This document shows, piece by piece, positions 6,947 to 19,157 of a stretch of DNA of 64,000 nt. Both the position numbers and the translations under genes were made by a program. The stretch is from the NCBI RefSeq assembly GCF_013122565.1, contig NZ_CP053258.1; one strand, written 5' to 3'. Source of the DNA: Escherichia coli. Lineage in GTDB: Bacteria; Pseudomonadota; Gammaproteobacteria; Enterobacterales; Enterobacteriaceae. Below the pieces are notes generated by a model. The model saw only the letters and a list, made by a program, of their open reading frames with translations. It made no database searches and was not told the DNA's origin. Positions within the stretch are counted from its first letter, which is position 1. Each line of letters starts with the position of its first letter.

Positions 6947-7882
6947 ATGGCACTGCCAATTCTGTTAGATTGCGACCCAGGTCATGACGATGCTATCGCA
7001 ATAGTTCTCGCCCTCGCCTCACCAGAGCTTGATGTCAAAGCAATTACGTCTTCCGCCGGAAACCAGACACCAGAAAAAACCTTACGCAATGTTCTGCGTA
7101 TGCTGACCTTGCTTAATCGCACCGATATTCCGGTAGCCGGCGGCGCGGTAAAACCGTTAATGCGTGAGTTGATTATCGCGGACAATGTGCACGGCGAAAG
7201 CGGTCTGGATGGCCCGGCATTACCGGAACCGACGTTTGCACCGCAAAACTGTACGGCGGTGGAGCTGATGGCGAAAACGCTACGTGAAAGTGCGGAACCT
7301 GTCACAATTGTGTCTACCGGACCGCAAACTAACGTTGCCTTGCTGCTCAATAGCCTCCCGGAACTGCATAGCAAAATTGCCCGTATCGTGATTATGGGCG
7401 GCGCAATGGGGCTTGGTAACTGGACGCCTGCGGCTGAATTTAATATTTACGTTGACCCGGAAGCGGCAGAAATTGTCTTCCAGTCAGGGATCCCGGTGGT
7501 GATGGCCGGTCTGGATGTTACTCACAAAGCACAAATCCACGTTGAAGACACCGAGCGTTTCCGCGCGATTGGCAACCCTGTTTCAACCATTGTTGCCGAA
7601 CTGCTGGATTTCTTCCTCGAATATCATAAAGACGAAAAATGGGGTTTTGTCGGCGCACCGCTGCATGACCCATGCACCATCGCCTGGTTGTTGAAACCGG
7701 AGTTGTTTACCACTGTTGAGCGCTGGGTTGGCGTGGAAACACAGGGGAAATATACCCAGGGTATGACGGTTGTTGATTATTATTATCTGACTGGCAATAA
7801 ACCGAATGCCACCGTAATGGTCGATGTTGATCGTCAGGGCTTTGTTGATTTACTGGCTGATCGTCTGAAATTTTACGCTTAA
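6947..7882 (+). CDS. rihA: Pyrimidine-specific ribonucleoside hydrolase, 311 aa
   Basis: ATG at 6947 with AAGGAG upstream; N-terminal DCDPGHDDA nucleoside-hydrolase aspartate motif. Confidence 0.9.
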
Positions 7883-7965
7883 CACACGTCATTGATTAAG
7901 ATCACCACGCGTTACCTGGGTGGTCTTAATCTGTTTATCTCTTTTTCTTTCAAGATATAAATGCA

Positions 7966-9636
7966 ATGGATAATGCAGAACTCGCCATTGGTATCGATCT
8001 CGGTACTACCAATAGTTTAATTGCCGTCTGGAAAGACGGTGCCGCGCAATTAATTCCAAATAAGTTCGGTGAATATTTAACACCATCCATAATTAGCATG
8101 GATGAAAATAATCATATTTTAGTCGGAAAACCGGCTGTATCACGGCGTACTTCGCATCCGGATAAAACGGCAGCGTTATTTAAACGTGCAATGGGCAGTA
8201 ATACCAACTGGCGGTTAGGCAGCGACACATTTAACGCGCCAGAACTGTCCTCTTTGGTATTACGCTCATTAAAAGAAGATGCCGAAGAATTTCTGCAACG
8301 TCCAATTAAAGATGTGGTGATCTCCGTTCCGGCTTATTTCAGCGATGAACAACGCAAGCATACCCGTTTAGCAGCGGAGTTAGCCGGGTTAAATGCGGTA
8401 CGCTTAATTAATGAACCCACAGCAGCTGCAATGGCGTATGGCCTGCATACCCAACAAAATACCCGTTCGCTGGTGTTTGATCTCGGTGGCGGCACGTTTG
8501 ACGTTACGGTGCTTGAGTACGCCACGCCGGTGATTGAAGTTCACGCCTCCGCTGGCGACAACTTTCTTGGTGGCGAAGATTTTACCCATATGCTGGTCGA
8601 TGACGTTTTAAAGCGCGCGGATGTCGCCAGGAACACGCTTAACGAGAGTGAACTGGCAGCCTTGTACGCCTGCGTAGAAGCGGCAAAATGTAGTAATCAA
8701 TCGCCAATGCACATTCGCTGGCAGTACCAGGATGAAACGCGGGAGTGCGAATTTTACGAGAACGAACTGGAAGATTTGTGGTTGCCGCTGCTCAATCGCT
8801 TGCGAGTGCCGATTGAACAGGCGTTGCGCGATGCGCGTCTGAAGCCGAGTCAAATCGACAGTCTGGTGCTGGTTGGCGGCGCGTCACAAATGCCGCTGGT
8901 GCAGCGAATCGCCGTGCGTCTGTTTGGCAAATTACCGTATCAAAGTTACGATCCGAGCACCATTGTCGCGCTGGGCGCAGCAATCCAGGCCGCCTGCCGC
9001 TTACGCAGTGAAGATATTGAAGAAGTGATCCTCACTGATATTTGCCCTTACTCGTTGGGTGTTGAAGTTAACCGTCAGGGCGTATCCGGCATTTTCTCGC
9101 CGATTATTGAACGAAACACCACAGTACCGGTGTCGCGTGTAGAAACGTACTCGACCATGCACCCGGAGCAGGATTCAATTACGGTTAACGTCTATCAGGG
9201 AGAAAACCACAAAGTTAAAAATAACATTCTGGTGGAATCCTTCGATGTGCCGTTGAAGAAAACCGGGGCTTATCAGTCGATTGATATTCGTTTTAGTTAT
9301 GATATCAACGGCTTGCTTGAAGTTGACGTACTTCTGGAAGACGGCAGCGTTAAGTCCAGAGTCATTAATCATAGCCCGGTAACATTGAGCGCGCAGCAGA
9401 TCGAAGAGAGTCGGACGCGGTTATCCGCATTGAAAATTTATCCGCGCGATATGCTCATCAATCGCACCTTTAAAGCCAAACTGGAAGAGTTGTGGGCGCG
9501 AGCGCTGGGTGACGAGCGAGAAGAGATTGGCCGGGTGATCACCGATTTTGATGCGGCGTTGCAGTCAAACGATATGGCCCGCGTCGATGAGGTCAGGCGG
9601 CGGGCGAGCGATTATTTAGCCATTGAGATCCCATAA
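7966..9636 (+). CDS. hscC: Hsp70-family chaperone HscC, 556 aa
   Basis: Hsp70 signatures IDLGTTNS and DLGGGTFD in translation; shorter than DnaK; AT-rich codon usage. Confidence 0.9.
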   Translation: MDNAELAIGIDLGTTNSLIAVWKDGAAQLIPNKFGEYLTPSIISMDENNHILVGKPAVSRRTSHPDKTAALFKRAMGSNTNWRLGSDTFNAPELSSLVLRSLKEDAEEFLQRPIKDVVISVPAYFSDEQRKHTRLAAELAGLNAVRLINEPTAAAMAYGLHTQQNTRSLVFDLGGGTFDVTVLEYATPVIEVHASAGDNFLGGEDFTHMLVDDVLKRADVARNTLNESELAALYACVEAAKCSNQSPMHIRWQYQDETRECEFYENELEDLWLPLLNRLRVPIEQALRDARLKPSQIDSLVLVGGASQMPLVQRIAVRLFGKLPYQSYDPSTIVALGAAIQAACRLRSEDIEEVILTDICPYSLGVEVNRQGVSGIFSPIIERNTTVPVSRVETYSTMHPEQDSITVNVYQGENHKVKNNILVESFDVPLKKTGAYQSIDIRFSYDINGLLEVDVLLEDGSVKSRVINHSPVTLSAQQIEESRTRLSALKIYPRDMLINRTFKAKLEELWARALGDEREEIGRVITDFDAALQSNDMARVDEVRRRASDYLAIEIP

Positions 9637-9644
9637 ACACGGCT

Positions 9645-9676
9645 GCCGGATGCGGCGTAAACGCTGCATCCGGCAT
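9645..9676. repeat. REP-like palindromic unit between convergent hscC and djlC
   Basis: GCCGGATGCGGCGTAAACGCTGCATCCGGC with GCCGGATGC/GCATCCGGC arms. Confidence 0.6.
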
Positions 9677-9694
9677 CGGCGCCAAAACACATCG

Positions 9695-11146
9695 TCAACT
9701 AAACAACATCGCGATTTTGCCGAGAGCATAACCTATCACCAGCACCGTTAAACTGATTTTGATAATGCCGGTAATGCTCTGTGGTTTTTCATCCTCATCA
9801 TTTTTTTCTTCATGGTTTTCAGGTGTTGGCTCATCGACATCTTCATCCTCCGGCTCGAGTTTCACTTTCGTCAACAGCATCCGGGTGATGATGGCCTCTA
9901 ATGGATGAGCATCTCCACCTTCCAGCCTTGTATTAAGACGGGCCAGCATCTCTTGTTTCGGAAACGCTTCAAGTACTACCTGTTCCGCTACCCGATACAA
10001 ATCCAGTAACGGTGAATCTTGCTCTGTCTCGCTACCGACTCTCGATTTCCACCACGCCCATGCTTTGCGCTTGAAAAATAACGATTCAATAAACGATTGA
10101 CCTAACGGCGATAATTTTCCGCTATGTAAAATTTCCGCCCATAACAGCCGCGTCCGGGCGCTCTCACCAGGAACATATTTCAACGGTTTACCTTGCACAT
10201 CAACCATGCTCTGCGCTTCGATAACCATCACTAACAGCGCGAAATAATCCGGGCAATGTTGTGCGCTCCACTGCAACAACAAATTATCGGCTTGTGTAGA
10301 TGGGTAACTCTCCCGGTATGCGCAGAGATCGGCAAGCAGGCTTTCCCCCTCGCCGCAGTACAAACGTTGTGCACACTGGTAATACCGGGCATCTTCGCTT
10401 TCTGGTTCTTCCATTTGCCACTGTTGGGCAACAGGAATGAGTTCCGCCATACCTGTTTGCACCGAGCTGTACCAGCGCAACAGTTTGCGATGTAACTTTG
10501 CATCATCAGGAATGAACCACGGACCTTCCATCGCCAAAAACGCAGTGACATAGTCAGGATGGTAACGGCAGCAACGTTCCAGCGCGAAGTAATACTCAAC
10601 AGTCTGGTTCTGCAACGCAACAGGATATTCCAGAAGGCTAAGGAAATCGAAACAATCACCAGCCTGAATGGCCTCAAGAAAAGCCTCCCTTTCTTCCTCA
10701 TCCATTCCTTCGCTGTCATTAAACGAATGCCAGTTCAAACGCTCTGCCAGCAAAGAAGCACAATTTAATGAAAGATATCGCGCTTCTATAGCGATTGCAC
10801 ACAGCGGCCAGCGTAATTGATCGACATCCTCCATGTTCCAGGTATTTAATTGCTGAATAAATTTCTGCCAGGCGGAGGGCTGAAAACGATCACTTTCTGA
10901 ATCCAGTAATGCCCTGAATGCACATAGTATTTCATGTTCAGCGGCAGCATCTTTTTCTTCATCATCTGCTTCCTCGACAGGATTTACCGCCAATCGCAAG
11001 GCCTCTTCATAGGCCTGGCGTAATGCTTTAAACCCCTGCGGATCGGTTTCGGGATGACACAACGGTAAGCGAGCAAGATAAGCCTGGCGGATAATGTCTA
11101 TTTGCGTCGTGCTTTCAATTTCGAGGATTTGCCAACATGTTTTCAT
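9695..11146 (-). CDS. djlC: J-domain co-chaperone DjlC (HscC partner), 483 aa, C-terminal membrane anchor
   Basis: N-terminal J-like domain (…[18 protein letters not shown]…); hydrophobic C-terminal tail; overlaps ybeU stop by 4 nt. Confidence 0.85.
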
Positions 11147-11850
11147 AGGTCGCTCACATCCTTAAGCGTTACCGGGCATTCAGGCTGGACAGTCAATGGC
11201 TGCCAGGGAAGCGTGGCATAGAAACGATCGCTTCCCGCTGCCAGCTCTTCGAACATCCGACTCCCGGCGCTATCGTATTTGTACAGGGTTAGCGCCTCGC
11301 GTAACGAAGCGTTGTCTTCGCATTGAGAAGATTGCCAGTAGAGACGCCCTAGTGAATAGGCAGAAAAATAGTGCATCCAGCTGTGATAGTAATGGTGTGC
11401 TCGGACGTAGACGCGCGATTGCAGCCATAAACTCTCGTCTTCCGTCAGCCACTTGTTGAGCACACCGACCCGTGACAGAAACCCCATTCGAACATAATCC
11501 CAGGCTTTGATTCCACCTTCTCCACAGCACATAGCGGTTTGGGCAACGAATTGGGTATAAATCAACCCTCTCTCCGAGCCACCAGCAATTAATGCTTTCC
11601 ACTCTTCAGGGGAAGAGCGATGCCATGTCAGATATAAGCCAGCTAAATCATTAGCATGACCATCATCAGTCATCTGATAAATAGTCTGAATTAAATCATC
11701 ACGATTATTTATTCCCCAGGATGATGAGAGATCGAATTCTTTTATCCCAGTATACATTTTCGGCGAGTCATGCGCGGGTTTGCAACCCTGATTAAGTATT
11801 TCCATTGGCGCAGAAAGCGCAAAAAGAAGATATTGTTCTTCCTTATTCAT
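11143..11850 (-). CDS. ybeU: DUF1266-family protein YbeU, 235 aa
   Basis: ORF 11143..11850; paralogous to ybeR in this window; translationally coupled to djlC. Confidence 0.85.
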
Positions 11851-11951
11851 TTGTTAATAATCCCTTAAGTGCATTAACTGACTACTTTTTTATTATTGAT
11901 GAGTATAAACTTGACGCTTTCAAAATAAAAAGAAAATCGAATCATTCACAG

Positions 11952-12506
11952 ATGAATAAAAAATTAATGTATATATTCGCAATATTTATAGTTGCAGCAA
12001 TTACCTGTATTAGCCAACCCAAGAAAACGACGTTGCGTGATAAAGCCATGGCGAATTATGCCTTTGATTATTTAAGCTCACCAGGCAGTCTTCCATTCAC
12101 CACGGCAGCCACGGAGCTTTCCGCGATTCATGGTCACTCAACGTCGCAATATCGCCTTGGCGAATTTTATCTTCATGGTAGCGACGGGAAACCACTGGAT
12201 TATACACAGGCGAGATACTGGTATGAGCAATCAGCAGAACAGGAAAATCCACGCGCGCAAAGTAAACTGGGGTGGATCTACCTCAAAGGTCTGGGGGTCA
12301 AACCCGACACCCGTAAAGCAATTCTCTGGTATAAGGAAGCAGCTGAACAAGGGTATGCTCATGCTCAATATACTTTAGGTTTGATCTACAGAAATGGCTC
12401 AGGTATTAATGTTAACCATTATGAATCTCAAAAATGGTTAAAACTGGCCGCCAAACAACATTACAAAAATGCGGAAAGATTACTTGCCGGGCTTCCCGCA
12501 CATTAA
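11952..12506 (+). CDS. ybeT: Sel1-repeat protein YbeT, 184 aa
   Basis: Internal ATG at 11952 (MNKKLMYIF..., signal/TM-like N-terminus); Sel1-type repeats; longer ORF from 11805 rejected. Confidence 0.75.
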
Positions 12507-12515
12507 CGTCGACGG

Positions 12516-13943
12516 TCACCCGAACAGATGGAGTATTTTCCCTATCAAACCAGCAAAGATAAAAATATAGAAAATAATTTTGATGACGCCCAGACAGCCC
12601 GGCCCACCATCATCAACGGGCATTGGTTGCGGTTGCGGCTCCGGTTCGACGGTTTGCTTCTCGGCAAAATTCGCCGACTGAATTAATAACCGTCGAATAA
12701 TTAATGCCTCCAGAGGACAACGATCTTCTGCATCAAGGCGGCTCACAATCGGCATTAATGATTCTTCTGTAGGTTGGCTGGCCTGCACTAATTGTTTGGC
12801 AACTAGATATAATGGCCATAAGGTATGTTCTGTATCACGCGTGAGTGAGATCCGCGGCTTACGTCCTTTGTGCAAAACCATCTCGACCAGTGAACGCCCC
12901 AGAGCAGAGAGTTTTTCATCGCTGAGTATTTCGTATAAATGAAAACGCGTACGGGCGCTGTCGCCGGGGACATAAAGTAGCGGTTTTCCCTGGTCGTTAA
13001 CCAGTTCACGAGCTTCAATCATCATCACCACTAACGGGTAATAATCGACCCGATGCTGACGACACCATTGCAACATTAAAGCATCCGCCTGGGTGGAGGG
13101 ATACTCGCGCCAGTAGTCACAAAGTTCTGCCAGCAGGCTTTCGCCTTCTCCACAATAGACGCGTTGCGCGTATTCATAATAACGCGCATCTTCATTATCA
13201 GGTTCAGCTTCCCGCCACGACCGGGCGTAATCCAGGAGTTCGGGGATATCCAGGCGACCTGCGCTATACCAGCGGAGTAAATTTCTGTGCAGTTTTGCAT
13301 CATCGGGGATAATCACTGCGCGATGTTGCGATAAATACAATGTCAGCCATTCTGGATGCGATGACCAAATCCGGGCGAACATTTGGTAAAAATCGATGGT
13401 GTCATTTTGCACGGCAACGGGCAGATGCAGAATGGTCTGGAAGTTAAAAACATTTCCCTTCGCAATGGCATATAAAAAGGATTCCAGTTCTTCTTCGTCT
13501 ATTTCCCCGGTGTTTTCCTCCTGCAACCACCGCAATCTTTCTGCTAATAACACCACACACTCGAAGGATAAATGGGCAGTGTTCATGGCGATTGTGCACA
13601 GCGACCAGCGTAATTCATCAATCTCTTCCATTGAGCAATAATTTAATTGCTGAATGAATCGCTGCCAGGCGGAAGGCAGAAAACGTTCGCTATCAGAAGC
13701 AAGTAAAGCACGAAAGGCGAGCAGAATTTCATGTTCTGCTACCTCATATTCTTCTGGTTGCCAAACAGATTTAGCAGGCGACTGCGCAATCCGTAGCGCC
13801 TCCTCATACGCCTGACGAAGTTGTTTAAAACCCTGCGGATCGGTTTCTGGATGAAAGGACGGTAACAGCGCCAGATAAGCGCGGCGGATAATATCGACGT
13901 CAGTCGTTTCCTCTATGTTGAGGATCTTCCAGCAATTTTTCAT
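12516..13943 (-). CDS. djlB: J-domain co-chaperone DjlB, 475 aa, C-terminal membrane anchor
   Basis: Paralog of djlC (N-terminal [39 protein letters not shown]); hydrophobic C-terminus. Confidence 0.85.
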
Positions 13944-14647
13944 AGGTCGCTCATATCCTTAAGCGTTTCAGGGCATGCAGAATAGTAAGCCAATGGTTGC
14001 CAGGACAAGGTAGGGTAATACGCATCATCACTGGCAAATAATTGATAAAACATATCATTGCCGGAATCGTCGTATTCTTTACGCGCTAAGAATTCACGTA
14101 ATAACTGAAGATTATCATCTTCGGGAGACTGCCAATATTGCCGACCAAAGGTATAACCGGCAAAGTATTGCTGCCAGTTACTATAATAACGTAGCGCCCG
14201 TAGATGAATGCGCGACTGGATCCATAGACTTTCTTCTTCGCTCAACCAGTTATTAAGTACGCCCATTCGGCTTAAAAAACCCATCCGGACATAATCCCAG
14301 GCTTTGATTCCCCCTTCGCCACAGCATTCGGCGGTGCTGGCGACAAATTGCGCATAAGCCTGACCTTGCTCATTTAGTTCAGCAAGATAGTCACGCCATT
14401 CACACGGAGAATAACGAAACCAGCGGTGATAAAACCCTGCCAACCGAGCGGCATGACCGTTATCGATCATTCGGTGAATTGTGCGCAGCAGGTCATCACG
14501 GTCATCAATTCCCCATGAGGAAGAAAGGTCAAAAAAGCATGTACCTAAATACATTTTGGGAGATGAATGCGAAGGTAAACAGCATTCATTGCGTATTTCC
14601 ATCGGAGTGGAAAGTGCAAACAATATTTTTTGCGACCCCATGTCCAT
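13940..14647 (-). CDS. ybeR: DUF1266-family protein YbeR, 235 aa
   Basis: ORF 13940..14647; paralog of ybeU; 4-nt overlap with djlB start. Confidence 0.85.
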
Positions 14648-14804
14648 ATAATTTATCCTTAAACATTCATTTAATGAATGTAAACTACATTTCGAGACTC
14701 AGTTATTTATACTTTTCTGACGCAACATAATACGCATAAAATAAGGCTTACGCAAAAATGGAACACATAAAAATATAATATGTTTTATCTACAACCATAA
14801 GGAA

Positions 14805-15788
14805 ATGATAATGATTTTTACGTCAAGTTGCTGCGATAATTTATCAATAGATGAGATTATCGAACGTGCTGAAAAAGGCGATTGCGAGGCTCAATATATT
14901 GTTGGGTTTTATTATAATCGCGATAGCGCAATTGACTCTCCGGACGACGAAAAGGCCTTTTACTGGCTGAAGCTGGCCGCTGAGCAAGGTCATTGTGAAG
15001 CACAATATTCCTTAGGGCAAAAGTATACCGAGGATAAAAGCCGTCATAAAGATAATGAGCAAGCCATCTTTTGGCTGAAAAAAGCTGCCCTACAAGGCCA
15101 TACTTTCGCTTCCAACGCCCTTGGCTGGATACTGGATCGTGGAGAAGACCCCAACTATAAAGAAGCGGTTGCCTGGTATCAGATAGCCGCGGAGAGCGGA
15201 ATGTCTTATGCGCAAAATAATCTTGGGTGGATGTACAGAAATGGCAACGGAGTCGCACAAGACTATACGCTGGCATTTTTCTGGTACAAACAAGCTGCAT
15301 TACAAGGCCATAGTGACGCGCAAAACAATCTGGCCGATCTTTATGAAGACGGAAAAGGCGTTGCTCAAAACGAGACACTCGCCGCATTCTGGTATTTGAA
15401 AAGCGCACAGCAGGGTAATCGGCATGCTCAGTTTCAAATTGCATGGGATTATAACGCTGGCGAAGGGGTGGACCAGGACTATAAGCAAGCGATGTACTGG
15501 TATCTGAAGGCTGCCGCTCAGGGGAGCGTCGGCGCTTACGTCAACATCGGTTATATGTATAAACACGGACAAGGCGTTGAGAAAGATTATCAGGCCGCCT
15601 TTGAATGGTTTACGAAAGCCGCTGAATGCAATGACGCCACAGCCTGGTATAACCTGGCCATTATGTATCACTACGGAGAAGGAAGACCTGTCGATCTCCG
15701 ACAGGCTCTCGACCTGTATCGTAAAGTTCAGTCATCCGGAACCAGAGATGTCAGTCAAGAAATTCGTGAGATTGAAGATTTACTGTAG
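14805..15788 (+). CDS. ybeQ: Sel1-repeat (TPR-like) protein YbeQ, about 325 aa
   Basis: Multiple Sel1 repeats (…A.WY.KAA.QG… pattern) in translation; start may be the ATG at 14811. Confidence 0.85.
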   Translation: MIMIFTSSCCDNLSIDEIIERAEKGDCEAQYIVGFYYNRDSAIDSPDDEKAFYWLKLAAEQGHCEAQYSLGQKYTEDKSRHKDNEQAIFWLKKAALQGHTFASNALGWILDRGEDPNYKEAVAWYQIAAESGMSYAQNNLGWMYRNGNGVAQDYTLAFFWYKQAALQGHSDAQNNLADLYEDGKGVAQNETLAAFWYLKSAQQGNRHAQFQIAWDYNAGEGVDQDYKQAMYWYLKAAAQGSVGAYVNIGYMYKHGQGVEKDYQAAFEWFTKAAECNDATAWYNLAIMYHYGEGRPVDLRQALDLYRKVQSSGTRDVSQEIREIEDLL

Positions 15789-15857
15789 AGATAAAAACAA
15801 GGGCCGGGGAATTTCATTCGGCCCATATTCTATTTATTACTCTGCGTAATCAGACTA

Positions 15858-16340
15858 TTACGGCTCAAACGGGCGTCTCTGGAACTGATCATGACCACAT
15901 TTCGGGCATAGCGTCAGCACTTCCGGTGTGTAGATCGGGAGATGGAAGTGACATTTCTCGCAGACCAGATTCCCCAGCCCTACCACTTCTCCGCTGTGAT
16001 AAACCCCATGATGATTGAGGTCCTGGAAAACTTCGCGCCATTCAAGCTGCGTTTTATCGGTGATGTCTGCCAGCTCCTGCCATAAGCTTTCTTTAATCAC
16101 CCGCATAAAGACGCTGTCAGATTCTTCTTTCAGGCTCTCTTCATAGCTCATGGCGAACTCTTCCAGGTCACGTCTGACAGCTCGCGTCAGCTCATCGACC
16201 TCGGTTCGCGTTAACTCCCCTGTTTTTATTACGCGCTCGCGCGCCTGTTCCACCAGTGCGTCGATATCACGTTCGCCATTGCGCAGACGTTCGCTCAGTG
16301 ACGCGACCAGTTCACGGTAATATTGAGCAACCTTGTTCAT
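15858..16340 (-). CDS. ybeL: Zinc-ribbon DUF1451 protein YbeL, 160 aa
   Basis: ORF 15858..16340; C-terminal CEKCHF…CPKCG zinc-ribbon. Confidence 0.85.
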   Translation of the reverse strand: MNKVAQYYRELVASLSERLRNGERDIDALVEQARERVIKTGELTRTEVDELTRAVRRDLEEFAMSYEESLKEESDSVFMRVIKESLWQELADITDKTQLEWREVFQDLNHHGVYHSGEVVGLGNLVCEKCHFHLPIYTPEVLTLCPKCGHDQFQRRPFEP

Positions 16341-16574
16341 CGTTTCATCTCCCGGGTCGTTAACTGACTATAATAATAGACGTTCTTTGTTCCTTGCTTT
16401 GCTAATACGCCCACAAACTCTGTAAATTAATGTATGAATAATCCGGGCATCATTTCAACGTCGAGTGCGCGAAAGGCTGTTTTGACGCGGACGTTTGGGC
16501 TATGCTATGCGGATCTGAAAAACCACCTCAACGCTACATTTGTAGCCGTATTGAAAACAGGACCACTGGCTGCC

Positions 16575-19157
16575 ATGCAAGAGCAATACCGCCCGGAAGA
16601 GATAGAATCCAAAGTACAGCTTCATTGGGATGAGAAGCGCACATTTGAAGTAACCGAAGACGAGAGCAAAGAGAAGTATTACTGCCTGTCTATGCTTCCC
16701 TATCCTTCTGGTCGACTACACATGGGCCACGTACGTAACTACACCATCGGTGACGTGATCGCCCGCTACCAGCGTATGCTGGGCAAAAACGTCCTGCAGC
16801 CGATCGGCTGGGACGCGTTTGGTCTGCCTGCGGAAGGCGCGGCGGTGAAAAACAACACTGCACCGGCACCGTGGACGTACGACAACATCGCGTATATGAA
16901 AAACCAGCTCAAAATGCTGGGCTTTGGTTATGACTGGAGCCGCGAGCTGGCAACCTGTACGCCGGAATACTACCGTTGGGAACAAAAATTCTTCACCGAG
17001 CTGTATAAAAAAGGCCTGGTATATAAAAAGACTTCTGCGGTCAACTGGTGCCCGAACGACCAGACCGTACTGGCGAACGAACAAGTTATCGACGGCTGCT
17101 GCTGGCGCTGCGATACCAAAGTTGAACGTAAAGAGATCCCGCAGTGGTTTATCAAAATCACCGCTTACGCTGACGAGCTACTCAACGATCTGGATAAACT
17201 GGATCACTGGCCAGACACCGTTAAAACCATGCAGCGTAACTGGATCGGTCGTTCCGAAGGCGTGGAAATCACCTTCAACGTTAACGACTATGACAACACG
17301 CTGACCGTTTACACTACCCGCCCGGACACCTTTATGGGTTGCACCTACCTGGCGGTAGCTGCGGGTCATCCGCTGGCGCAGAAAGCGGCGGAAAATAATC
17401 CTGAACTGGCGGCCTTTATTGACGAATGCCGTAACACCAAAGTTGCTGAAGCTGAAATGGCGACGATGGAGAAAAAAGGCGTCGATACTGGCTTTAAAGC
17501 TGTTCACCCATTAACGGGCGAAGAAATTCCCGTTTGGGCAGCAAACTTCGTATTGATGGAGTACGGCACGGGCGCAGTAATGGCGGTTCCGGGGCACGAC
17601 CAACGCGACTACGAGTTTGCCTCTAAATACGGCCTGAACATCAAACCGGTTATCCTGACGGCTGACGGCTCTGAGCCAGATCTTTCTCAGCAAGCCCTGA
17701 CTGAAAAAGGCGTGCTGTTCAACTCTGGCGAATTCAACGGTCTTGACCATGAAGCGGCCTTCAACGCCATCGCCGATAAACTGACTGCGATGGGCGTTGG
17801 CGAGCGTAAAGTGAACTACCGCCTGCGCGACTGGGGCGTTTCTCGTCAGCGTTACTGGGGCGCGCCAATTCCGATGGTAACGCTGGAAGACGGCACTGTG
17901 ATGCCGACCCCGGACGACCAGCTGCCTGTGATCCTGCCGGAAGATGTGGTGATGGACGGCATTACCAGCCCGATTAAAGCAGATCCTGAGTGGGCAAAAA
18001 CTACCGTTAACGGTATGCCAGCGCTGCGTGAAACCGACACTTTCGACACCTTTATGGAGTCCTCCTGGTACTATGCGCGCTACACTTGCCCGCAGTACAA
18101 AGAAGGTATGCTGGATTCCGAAGCGGCTAACTACTGGCTGCCGGTGGATATCTACATTGGTGGTATCGAACACGCCATTATGCACCTGCTCTACTTCCGC
18201 TTCTTCCACAAACTGATGCGTGATGCAGGCATGGTGAACTCTGACGAACCAGCGAAACAGTTGCTGTGTCAGGGTATGGTGCTGGCAGATGCCTTCTACT
18301 ATGTTGGCGAAAACGGCGAACGTAACTGGGTTTCCCCGGTTGATGCTATCGTTGAACGTGACGAGAAAGGCCGTATCGTGAAAGCGAAAGATGCGGCAGG
18401 CCATGAACTGGTTTATACCGGCATGAGCAAAATGTCCAAGTCGAAGAACAACGGTATCGACCCGCAGGTGATGGTTGAACGTTACGGCGCGGACACCGTT
18501 CGTCTGTTTATGATGTTTGCTTCTCCGGCTGATATGACTCTCGAATGGCAGGAATCCGGCGTAGAAGGGGCTAACCGCTTCCTGAAACGTGTCTGGAAAC
18601 TGGTGTACGAGCATACAGCAAAAGGAGATGTTGCGGCACTGAACGTTGATGCACTGACTGAAGATCAGAAAGCGCTGCGTCGTGATGTGCATAAAACTAT
18701 CGCTAAAGTGACCGATGATATCGGCCGTCGTCAGACCTTCAACACCGCAATTGCGGCGATTATGGAGCTGATGAACAAACTGGCGAAAGCACCGACCGAT
18801 GGCGAGCAGGATCGCGCTCTGATGCAGGAAGCTCTGCTGGCCGTTGTCCGTATGCTTAACCCGTTCACCCCGCACATCTGCTTCACGCTGTGGCAGGAAC
18901 TGAAAGGCGAAGGAGATATCGACAACGCGCCGTGGCCGGTTGCTGACGAAAAAGCGATGGTGGAAGACTCCACGCTGGTTGTGGTGCAGGTTAACGGTAA
19001 AGTCCGTGCCAAAATCACCGTTCCGGTGGACGCAACGGAAGAACAGGTTCGCGAACGTGCTGGCCAGGAACATCTGGTAGCAAAATATCTTGATGGCGTT
19101 ACCGTGCGTAAAGTGATTTACGTACCAGGTAAACTCCTCAATCTGGTCGTTGGCTAA
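16575..19157 (+). CDS. leuS: Leucyl-tRNA synthetase, 860 aa
   Basis: ATG at 16575; HMGH (HIGH) and KMSKS motifs in translation; upstream in-frame extension rejected. Confidence 0.97.

Follow-up and report, generated by a model that had tools for sequence, protein, structure and literature searches.

The segment between positions 9695 and 14647 of a 64,000-nucleotide stretch of Escherichia coli DNA (contig NZ_CP053258.1, assembly GCF_013122565.1; hereafter the window) contains two tandem copies of an operon in which a gene encoding a DUF1266 protein is followed by a gene encoding a membrane-anchored J-protein with an HPE motif. These two copies probably constitute a dedicated co-chaperone module of the Hsp70 encoded next to them, HscC. 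The analysis itself establishes the paralogy, synteny, age, selection and distribution of the pairs, and the action of DjlC on HscC is taken from the literature. Of the three Hsp70s of E. coli, HscC is the least understood, and we know of no client assigned to it. The list of open reading frames (ORFs) and a search of complete E. coli genomes outlined the gene order rihA-hscC-djlC-ybeU-ybeT-djlB-ybeR-ybeQ-ybeL-leuS, and the segment, whose limits coincide with the djlC stop and the ybeR start, is the annotated E. coli hscC locus, with proteins 97-99% identical to their counterparts in a K-12-like strain and the same gene order. It is therefore the locus of the K-12 system formed by HscC (Hsc62), DjlC (YbeV) and DjlB (YbeS) (Kluck et al. 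2002, summarized in PMC8215388), from which its genes are not different and in which both J-proteins likewise have HPE instead of HPD and end in a tail anchor. Since the paralogy of DjlB and DjlC and their link to HscC are already published, the finding as first written in an earlier note on this DNA, which described a duplicated module of co-chaperone genes, adds little. The new content is modest: what look new are the constant coupling of the DUF1266 and J-protein genes across the family and the duplication of this pair on more than one occasion. Full-text literature searches returned one paper in which DUF1266 is mentioned but did not find YbeU and YbeR (DUF1266) or YbeT and YbeQ (Sel1) as parts of a chaperone system, and duplication as a two-gene module was not described in the literature searched.

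Protein alignments outlined two pairs of paralogs. DjlC and DjlB are collinear and identical at 228 of 427 residues (53%, E 2e-156), and YbeU and YbeR, both of 235 amino acids (aa), align over their full length and without gaps at 137 of 235 residues (58%, E 4e-103), in keeping with the long collinear identity that had been claimed for them. The two pairs lie on the minus strand in the same orientation, 665 bp apart and with ybeT between them. On the coding strand, both DUF1266/J-protein junctions read CTATGAAAA, with an ATGA stop/start overlap; in the junction context ...GAGCGACCTATGAAAA..., the TGA stop of the DUF1266 gene overlaps the ATG start of the J-protein gene by four bases, as noted earlier for both pairs. 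A tandem duplication of the DUF1266 and J-protein pair is well supported by these data. The homology is collinear over the full length of both genes and is not limited to the J-domain, the outcome that had been named as capable of overturning the duplication. The N-termini of DjlC and DjlB had been described as nearly identical; they are conserved, but the first 50 residues are identical at 39 positions (78%) and the description was overstated. Along the two J-protein genes, third-position identity was observed to reach 0.47-0.67 in codons 1-45 and 76-120, against about 0.2-0.4 elsewhere, a pattern that could reflect old gene conversion or a constraint on the mRNA.

Both proteins are class C J-domain proteins with an N-terminal J-domain. 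The HPE motif occupies residues 31-33 in both DjlC and DjlB, is kept in all 41 homologs surveyed, and has been described as functional and as the one tolerated variant of HPD, typical of DjlB and DjlC (PMC13254874, PMC10410713). The J-domains are divergent, and the Pfam DnaJ match is weak (E 0.038). Hydropathy analysis identified a single hydrophobic C-terminal segment in each protein (residues 457-483 in DjlC and 446-475 in DjlB), which fits the published tail-anchored topology of DjlC, the only one of the two for which there is experimental evidence of membrane insertion (PMC8215388). The two proteins have been described as HscC-specific, tail-anchored J-proteins about 50% identical to each other; DjlC stimulates the HscC ATPase and DjlB is assumed to act likewise, and sensitivity to Cd2+ results from deletion of hscC or from the double deletion of djlB and djlC (PMC8215388). 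The proposal that two co-chaperone sets serve one Hsp70 hence agrees with the literature, and we infer that DjlB would act on HscC in the same manner as DjlC. Outside the J-domain, DjlC is helical-repeat-like, and its orthologs carry the PF27158 (DjlB_C_2nd) domain. A third, more divergent djl-like gene was observed between ybeL and ybeQ in Escherichia sp. MOD1-EC7003 (L004:3648-5003). It shares 46-47% identity with DjlB and DjlC in the J-domain and 22-25% in the remainder, and it encodes HPE and a hydrophobic tail, but it presents an in-frame stop after codon 93 and the upstream DUF1266 gene is absent.

The DUF1266 domain (PF06889) was identified in YbeU (E 7.8e-45, residues 41-216) and is assigned to YbeR orthologs in precomputed tables. 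The DUF1266 gene is coupled to a J-protein gene in every cassette examined, across a wide range of the Gammaproteobacteria. The ATGA overlap was observed in 40 of the 41 pairs surveyed, from Pseudomonas to E. coli, with Brenneria (1-nt overlap) as the exception, and is departed from in the distant locus L043 and in the proximal pair of L048, a distant locus with two pairs described below. Being found family-wide, the overlap is a family trait and not evidence for the E. coli duplication; as read from the sequence, it points to coupled translation of the DUF1266 protein and the J-protein. The AlphaFold2 model of YbeU is all-helical, with a predicted local distance difference test score (pLDDT) of 90.7. 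Modeling of a YbeU-(GGGGS)6-DjlC(1-440) fusion with AlphaFold2 and 19 paired sequences yielded a pLDDT of 81.6 and a predicted template modeling score (pTM) of 0.76 over 705 residues. This pTM is above the expectation for two independently placed bodies and hints, in a manner that is only suggestive, at a defined YbeU-DjlC contact, and we infer that DUF1266 proteins may bind their cognate J-proteins.

Searches for relatives of known structure or function yielded little. No NCBIfam model matched DjlC, DjlB, YbeU or YbeR, and a PDB sequence search with YbeU and DjlC returned no match. Foldseek searches with the fused model returned no match under E 0.08 in the PDB, and thus no specific structural relative for the non-J part of DjlC; a Foldseek search against AFDB50 returned only other unannotated DUF1266 proteins and misassembled or contaminant entries. 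An AlphaFold database entry bearing the label Trichuris trichiura 'DnaJ-like subfamily C member 13' shares 95% identity with YbeU. Similarly, the final 388 bases (L008:10001-10388) of a contig labeled Paenibacillus sp. USDA918EY match E. coli ybeU at 96% identity, an indication of contamination or of a chimeric assembly. A DUF1266 profile search returned 2477 cluster representatives. The domain fusions among them (Cu_amine_oxidN1, LRR_5, SLH and TPR) were considered as a functional lead and rejected, as they belong to long, apparently Firmicutes members with an extracellular context, unlike the cytoplasmic YbeU type. Three more stand-alone YbeU-like members, from distant genomes, again lie in cassettes composed of a DUF1266 gene, a long J-protein gene and a convergent Hsp70 gene.

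To define the distribution of the module, one genome per species was scanned with DUF1266-motif seeds, yielding 33 loci onto which the window proteins were then mapped. Neither Salmonella nor Citrobacter was recovered in this way, and exact-protein look-ups supplied Salmonella, two Citrobacter genomes, E. fergusonii, E. albertii and a Kluyvera metagenome-assembled genome. The single-unit versions sought in related genomes are present from Pseudomonas to Kluyvera. Single DUF1266-J-protein pairs convergent with hscC were found in approximately 20 Pseudomonas species, Erwinia, Rahnella, Brenneria and Klebsiella spallanzanii, and about 30 loci hold a single-pair cassette that faces a convergent Hsp70 gene and lacks a Sel1 neighbor. 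Wherever the contig of a related locus extends far enough, an Hsp70 gene lies convergent to the J-protein gene. In Pseudomonas, Erwinia, Rahnella and Brenneria, the cassette shares with the window the gene order, the convergent Hsp70 gene and, except in Brenneria, the ATGA overlap; its DUF1266 protein is 37-42% identical to YbeU, and the aligned part of its J-protein about 27-33% identical to DjlC and DjlB. It differs in having one pair, a J-protein of about 890 aa with a DUF805 domain, and no Sel1 neighbor. Outside the Enterobacteriaceae, only the first 310-360 residues of these J-proteins align to DjlC, and the single-copy proteins of Pseudomonas, Erwinia and Rahnella (e.g. L029:10693-13389) end in the DUF805 multi-pass membrane domain, with a conserved NR[YF]G motif. 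The enterobacterial J-proteins, by contrast, have about 480 aa and a single tail anchor. Membrane attachment was hence kept, and its means changed at about the time when the pair was duplicated.

Within the Enterobacteriaceae, Kluyvera and K. spallanzanii carry one pair at the same ybeL-leuS site, without a Sel1 gene (the Kluyvera contig stops inside hscC), and in Salmonella and Citrobacter the order is ybeQ <-> ybeR-djlB -> ybeU-djlC -> <- hscC. Neighbor-joining trees with bootstrap were inferred for the DUF1266 proteins, the J-proteins and their concatenation, and the enterobacterial pairs form one clade with 100% bootstrap in all three. The single Kluyvera pair falls with the hscC-proximal pairs in one clade (82-100%), the distal pairs of Escherichia and Citrobacter cluster at 90-100%, and the Salmonella distal pair joins the K. 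spallanzanii pair at 90-99% in the Djl and concatenated trees. A clade of all distal pairs obtained 66-68% in the DUF1266 tree and no support in the Djl tree. The most economical interpretation places a single duplication ahead of the divergence of these genera, after which Kluyvera would have lost the distal pair and K. spallanzanii the proximal one. Synonymous divergence (dS) between the paralogs is saturated, with third-position identities of 0.38-0.42, and their nonsynonymous divergence (dN; 0.44 for djl and 0.34 for DUF1266 genes) is close to that of E. coli-Salmonella orthologs (0.28-0.48), indicating an old duplication, dating to about the Escherichia-Salmonella split or earlier. Both copies have orthologs in Escherichia, Salmonella and Citrobacter.

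A second duplication of the pair was identified in a distant genome (L048:2409-11215; GCA_019703835.1, AP023055.1), where two tandem DUF1266 and long J-like pairs lie by a convergent Hsp70 gene. These pairs group with each other in the three trees (86, 98 and 100%) and apart from the enterobacterial copies, and the duplication is therefore independent of the enterobacterial one. The distal J-like protein of this locus (873 aa) starts past the J-domain and consequently lacks it.

The earlier note had extended the duplicated unit to three genes by including the divergent Sel1 gene next to each pair. The arrangement is as stated, since an AT-rich spacer separates each DUF1266 gene from a divergent Sel1 gene, and all Escherichia species examined present it in full, ybeT included. 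YbeT and YbeQ moreover both belong to the Sel1 family: PF08238 was identified on YbeT clusters and orthologs and YbeQ is named a Sel1 family protein in RefSeq, with NCBIfam matches of the Sel1 proteins that are partial and below cut-off. On these grounds, a three-gene unit (Sel1 <-> DUF1266 -> J-protein) might have been duplicated, with later loss of ybeT in Salmonella and Citrobacter and divergence of YbeT and YbeQ down to repeat-level likeness, but we regard this as distinctly improbable. No Sel1 gene was detected by phmmer within approximately 10 kb on either side of single-pair loci, including those of Kluyvera and K. spallanzanii, and ybeT is absent from Salmonella and Citrobacter, where djlB and ybeU are separated by 12 and 73 bp, respectively, with no remnant. 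The similarity between YbeT and YbeQ is limited to Sel1 repeats, which align in several alternative registers at 33-39% identity across no more than 150 residues (E 6e-21), and YbeT scores no higher against YbeQ orthologs (69-77 bits) than against unrelated Sel1 proteins (54-79 bits). The two proteins also differ in length, repeat number and N-terminus, which is hydrophobic in YbeT (184 aa) and not in YbeQ (325 aa). Homologs of YbeT with at least 71% identity were found only in Escherichia, those below being generic Sel1 proteins, and YbeQ has orthologs in Salmonella and Citrobacter (50-60% identical). Alignment of the ybeU-ybeT and ybeR-ybeQ spacers, proposed as a check, revealed no similarity above shuffled controls (local score 17, shuffle mean 18.4), a comparison with little power because dS is saturated and similarity would not be expected in any case. 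The duplicated unit thus probably comprises two genes, with the Sel1 genes outside it, which corrects the idea of these genes as part of the unit.

The in-place duplication of the two-gene unit was also weighed against the gain of one pair by horizontal transfer from another enterobacterium, landing beside a resident pair. The region from hscC to ybeQ has a G+C content of 0.43-0.50, against 0.505 for the window, is under H-NS/SlyA control and is variably present in E. coli, and the one pair of K. spallanzanii is grouped with the distal pair of Salmonella, at odds with taxonomy. Nevertheless, all enterobacterial pairs fall in a single clade sharing the derived short, tail-anchored architecture, and three genera carry the two pairs side by side, equally oriented and at one chromosomal location, as in-place duplication predicts. 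Transfer from a donor of the same clade would look like duplication in these data, and we consider transfer the least likely of the alternatives, slightly below the three-gene unit. The remaining question is whether the distal ybeR-djlB pair, with ybeQ, is a redundant copy drifting to loss instead of a second specialized co-chaperone set. Among 5426 complete E. coli genomes, taking genes as intact when at least 80% covered, hscC is intact in 4376, the proximal ybeU-djlC pair in 4268, the distal ybeR-djlB pair in 3712 and the whole two-pair locus in 3662. Redundancy is also in line with the recurrent deletions and the frameshifted djlB/djlC hybrid described below, with the lower conservation of the distal clade, in which 37 Djl positions are invariant in that clade only as opposed to 94 in the proximal clade only, and with the description of a Cd2+ phenotype for the double deletion, which is compatible with overlapping function (PMC8215388). 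Yet the dN/dS ratios of djlB and ybeR between Escherichia species (0.06-0.15) reveal clear purifying selection, Escherichia, Salmonella and Citrobacter have all retained an intact distal pair from before they diverged, and the module was duplicated independently in L048. We therefore view drift to loss as unlikely, if less so than the other two alternatives.

Several points weigh against a two-copy module with the history proposed here. The Djl tree places the Salmonella distal and K. spallanzanii pairs outside the other enterobacterial pairs, so that the distal copies are not clearly one clade, and the trees, all neighbor-joining, do not fix the order of the deepest branches. Should Salmonella and Citrobacter be sister groups, losing ybeT once would be no less parsimonious than gaining it once in Escherichia, and we have kept a small share of probability on the three-gene unit for this reason. 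Fixed differences between the proximal and distal clades, examined as a signature of split specificity, amount to 0 positions in the DUF1266 proteins and 3 in the Djl proteins, and divergence of specificity is hence not visible in the sequence. Finally, the putative DUF1266-Djl contact is based on a single global model score and on gene coupling.

The genes of the locus evolve under uneven constraint. In comparisons of the window with E. albertii or E. whittamii, dN/dS is 0.06-0.14 for djlC, ybeU, ybeT, djlB, ybeR and ybeQ and 0.02-0.03 for hscC and rihA. Overall, the djl/ybe genes have dN/dS ratios of 0.06-0.18 and change 3-8 times faster than hscC. The djl/ybe genes are consequently maintained by purifying selection, under a weaker constraint than hscC. 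Identity to the Salmonella proteins ranges from 92% for RihA and 83% for HscC to 64% for YbeR, 63% for YbeU, 56% for DjlC, 50% for YbeQ and 47% for DjlB. One copy, the proximal, is conservative, and the other, the distal, is freer. It is plausible that the two co-chaperone sets have distinct specificities, as the earlier note had proposed, and their clients may differ.

The hscC locus is dispensable in E. coli: the whole segment including hscC is missing in about 19% of the complete genomes, and the distal pair alone has been lost in about 10%. In a common variant (e.g. E. coli AVS0051, L003) the equivalent of window positions 12644-15450 is deleted, so that ybeR is missing altogether, along with the greater part of djlB and the 5' portion of ybeQ. 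Complete absence of the locus is exemplified by E. coli DCE7 (L045), in which rihA lies 44 bp from ybeL, and in one genome, E. coli 2017.01.04CC (L046), an IS1 element replaces hscC through ybeR and ybeQ alone is left. In E. coli GF4 (L002:4297-6451, NZ_CP172217.1), the pairs have collapsed by unequal recombination into ybeR and a djlB-5'/djlC-3' hybrid, with a crossover at about nucleotides 96-110 of the J-protein gene, in the HPE-coding stretch, and a frameshifting 1-nt deletion where the two parts join. The ybeQ gene of GF4 also has an internal stop.

The data suggest the following history and mode of action for the duplicated DUF1266 and J-protein pair. The ancestral cassette would have consisted of a DUF1266 gene followed by the gene for a J-protein of about 890 aa with a DUF805 end, convergent with hscC and in single copy across the Gammaproteobacteria. 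In an ancestor of Escherichia, Salmonella, Citrobacter and Kluyvera, shortening would have produced a J-protein of about 480 aa with a single tail anchor, and the pair would have been duplicated in place. The Sel1 genes would have arrived separately, ybeQ beside the distal pair in Escherichia, Salmonella and Citrobacter, and ybeT by insertion in Escherichia alone, dividing a four-gene operon in two and giving rise to another AT-rich spacer controlled by H-NS/SlyA. Through the ATGA overlap, synthesis of the DUF1266 protein may be coupled to that of its J-protein, whose helical non-J part it would bind, while the J-domain would recruit HscC to the inner face of the membrane and trigger its ATPase. 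The proximal ybeU-djlC pair would have stayed conservative, with the distal ybeR-djlB pair evolving faster and being lost more often. A broader proposal, which we put forward tentatively and at somewhat less than even confidence, is that YbeU-type DUF1266 proteins could be obligate J-protein subunits, that HscC systems could be three-component machines, and that the pair may have been copied as an adaptor unit twice independently. If so, the DUF1266 and J-protein pair would be the unit that is copied when the cell needs a further adaptor for the same Hsp70. DUF1266 proteins are a likely third component of the HscC system, one unmentioned in the literature searched, and the two natural E. coli pairs are suited for testing whether partner choice resides in the DUF1266-Djl pairing.

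The DnaK (DnaJ, CbpA and DjlA) and HscA (HscB) systems offer a further comparison, the likeness being that of one Hsp70 served by more than one J-protein (PMC8215388). In J-proteins, stimulation of the ATPase comes from the J-domain, and localization or the choice of clients from the remaining part of the protein (PMC8215388). Unlike those of the DnaK and HscA systems, the J-proteins of the window are recent paralogs encoded beside the Hsp70 gene, each following a translationally coupled DUF1266 gene, both are membrane-anchored and both carry HPE, and the cassette has no gene for a nucleotide exchange factor.

The features of the locus are compiled in Table 1. The NCBIfam DnaK and HscA models matched HscC with scores under their cut-offs. 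The palindrome in the spacer between hscC and djlC looks like a repetitive extragenic palindromic (REP) element or a bidirectional terminator, as judged from its letters. Over-expression of SlyA induces ybeT and ybeU-djlC, which are also in the H-NS regulon list (PMC5797941). A promoter and terminator scan detected 4 promoter-like sites, against 11 in shuffled sequences, and no sigma-70 consensus sites in either divergent spacer, and a search of window positions 7000-17000 with Rfam returned no RNA family. A role in anti-phage defense was considered and rejected, as PADLOC returned no significant match for any of the eight proteins; the Sel1 proteins presented marginal, repeat-type matches to PtuA (E 1e-4 to 2e-3).

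Table 1. Features of the hscC locus in the window.
Feature	Position	Strand	Description
hscC	7966..9636	+	Specialized Hsp70, partner of both J-proteins; convergent with djlC; 99% identical to RefSeq HscC
hscC-djlC spacer (58 bp)	9637..9694		G+C-rich palindrome GCCGGATGCGGCG...CGCTGCATCCGGC, read from the sequence
djlC (ybeV)	9695..11146	-	483-aa J-protein with HPE motif and C-terminal tail anchor; hscC-proximal copy; 97% identical to RefSeq DjlC
ybeU	11143..11850	-	235-aa DUF1266 protein, upstream of djlC; ATGA overlap at 11143-11146
ybeU-ybeT divergent spacer (101 bp)	11851..11951		AT-rich, GC 0.27
ybeT	11952..12506	+	184-aa Sel1-repeat protein with hydrophobic N-terminus; between the two pairs; start and name as in RefSeq
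djlB (ybeS)	12516..13943	-	475-aa paralog of djlC with HPE and tail anchor; distal copy; 97% identical to RefSeq DjlB
ybeR	13940..14647	-	235-aa DUF1266 paralog of ybeU; ATGA overlap at 13940-13943; DUF1266 protein in RefSeq
ybeR-ybeQ divergent spacer (163 bp)	14648..14810		AT-rich, GC 0.26
ybeQ	14811..15788	+	325-aa Sel1-repeat protein without signal sequence; adjoins the distal pair; name and start as in RefSeq

The highest identity of window positions 7900-15900, and of its sub-segments, to the 5426 complete E. coli genomes is just 97.6-98.4%, and dS to a K-12-like strain is approximately 0.09 and alike in rihA, hscC and djlC, indicating that the lineage of the window is not closely represented among these genomes. 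Additional genes were observed around the locus in related species. In Salmonella (L037), SAF, GD_AH, KdgT and sigma-54 activator genes lie between leuS and ybeL, and a gene encoding a 412-aa protein lies between hscC and rihA. In E. albertii (L040), leuS is not beside ybeL in the contig, and a gene encoding a 320-aa protein with a signal-like N-terminus lies between ybeL and ybeQ.

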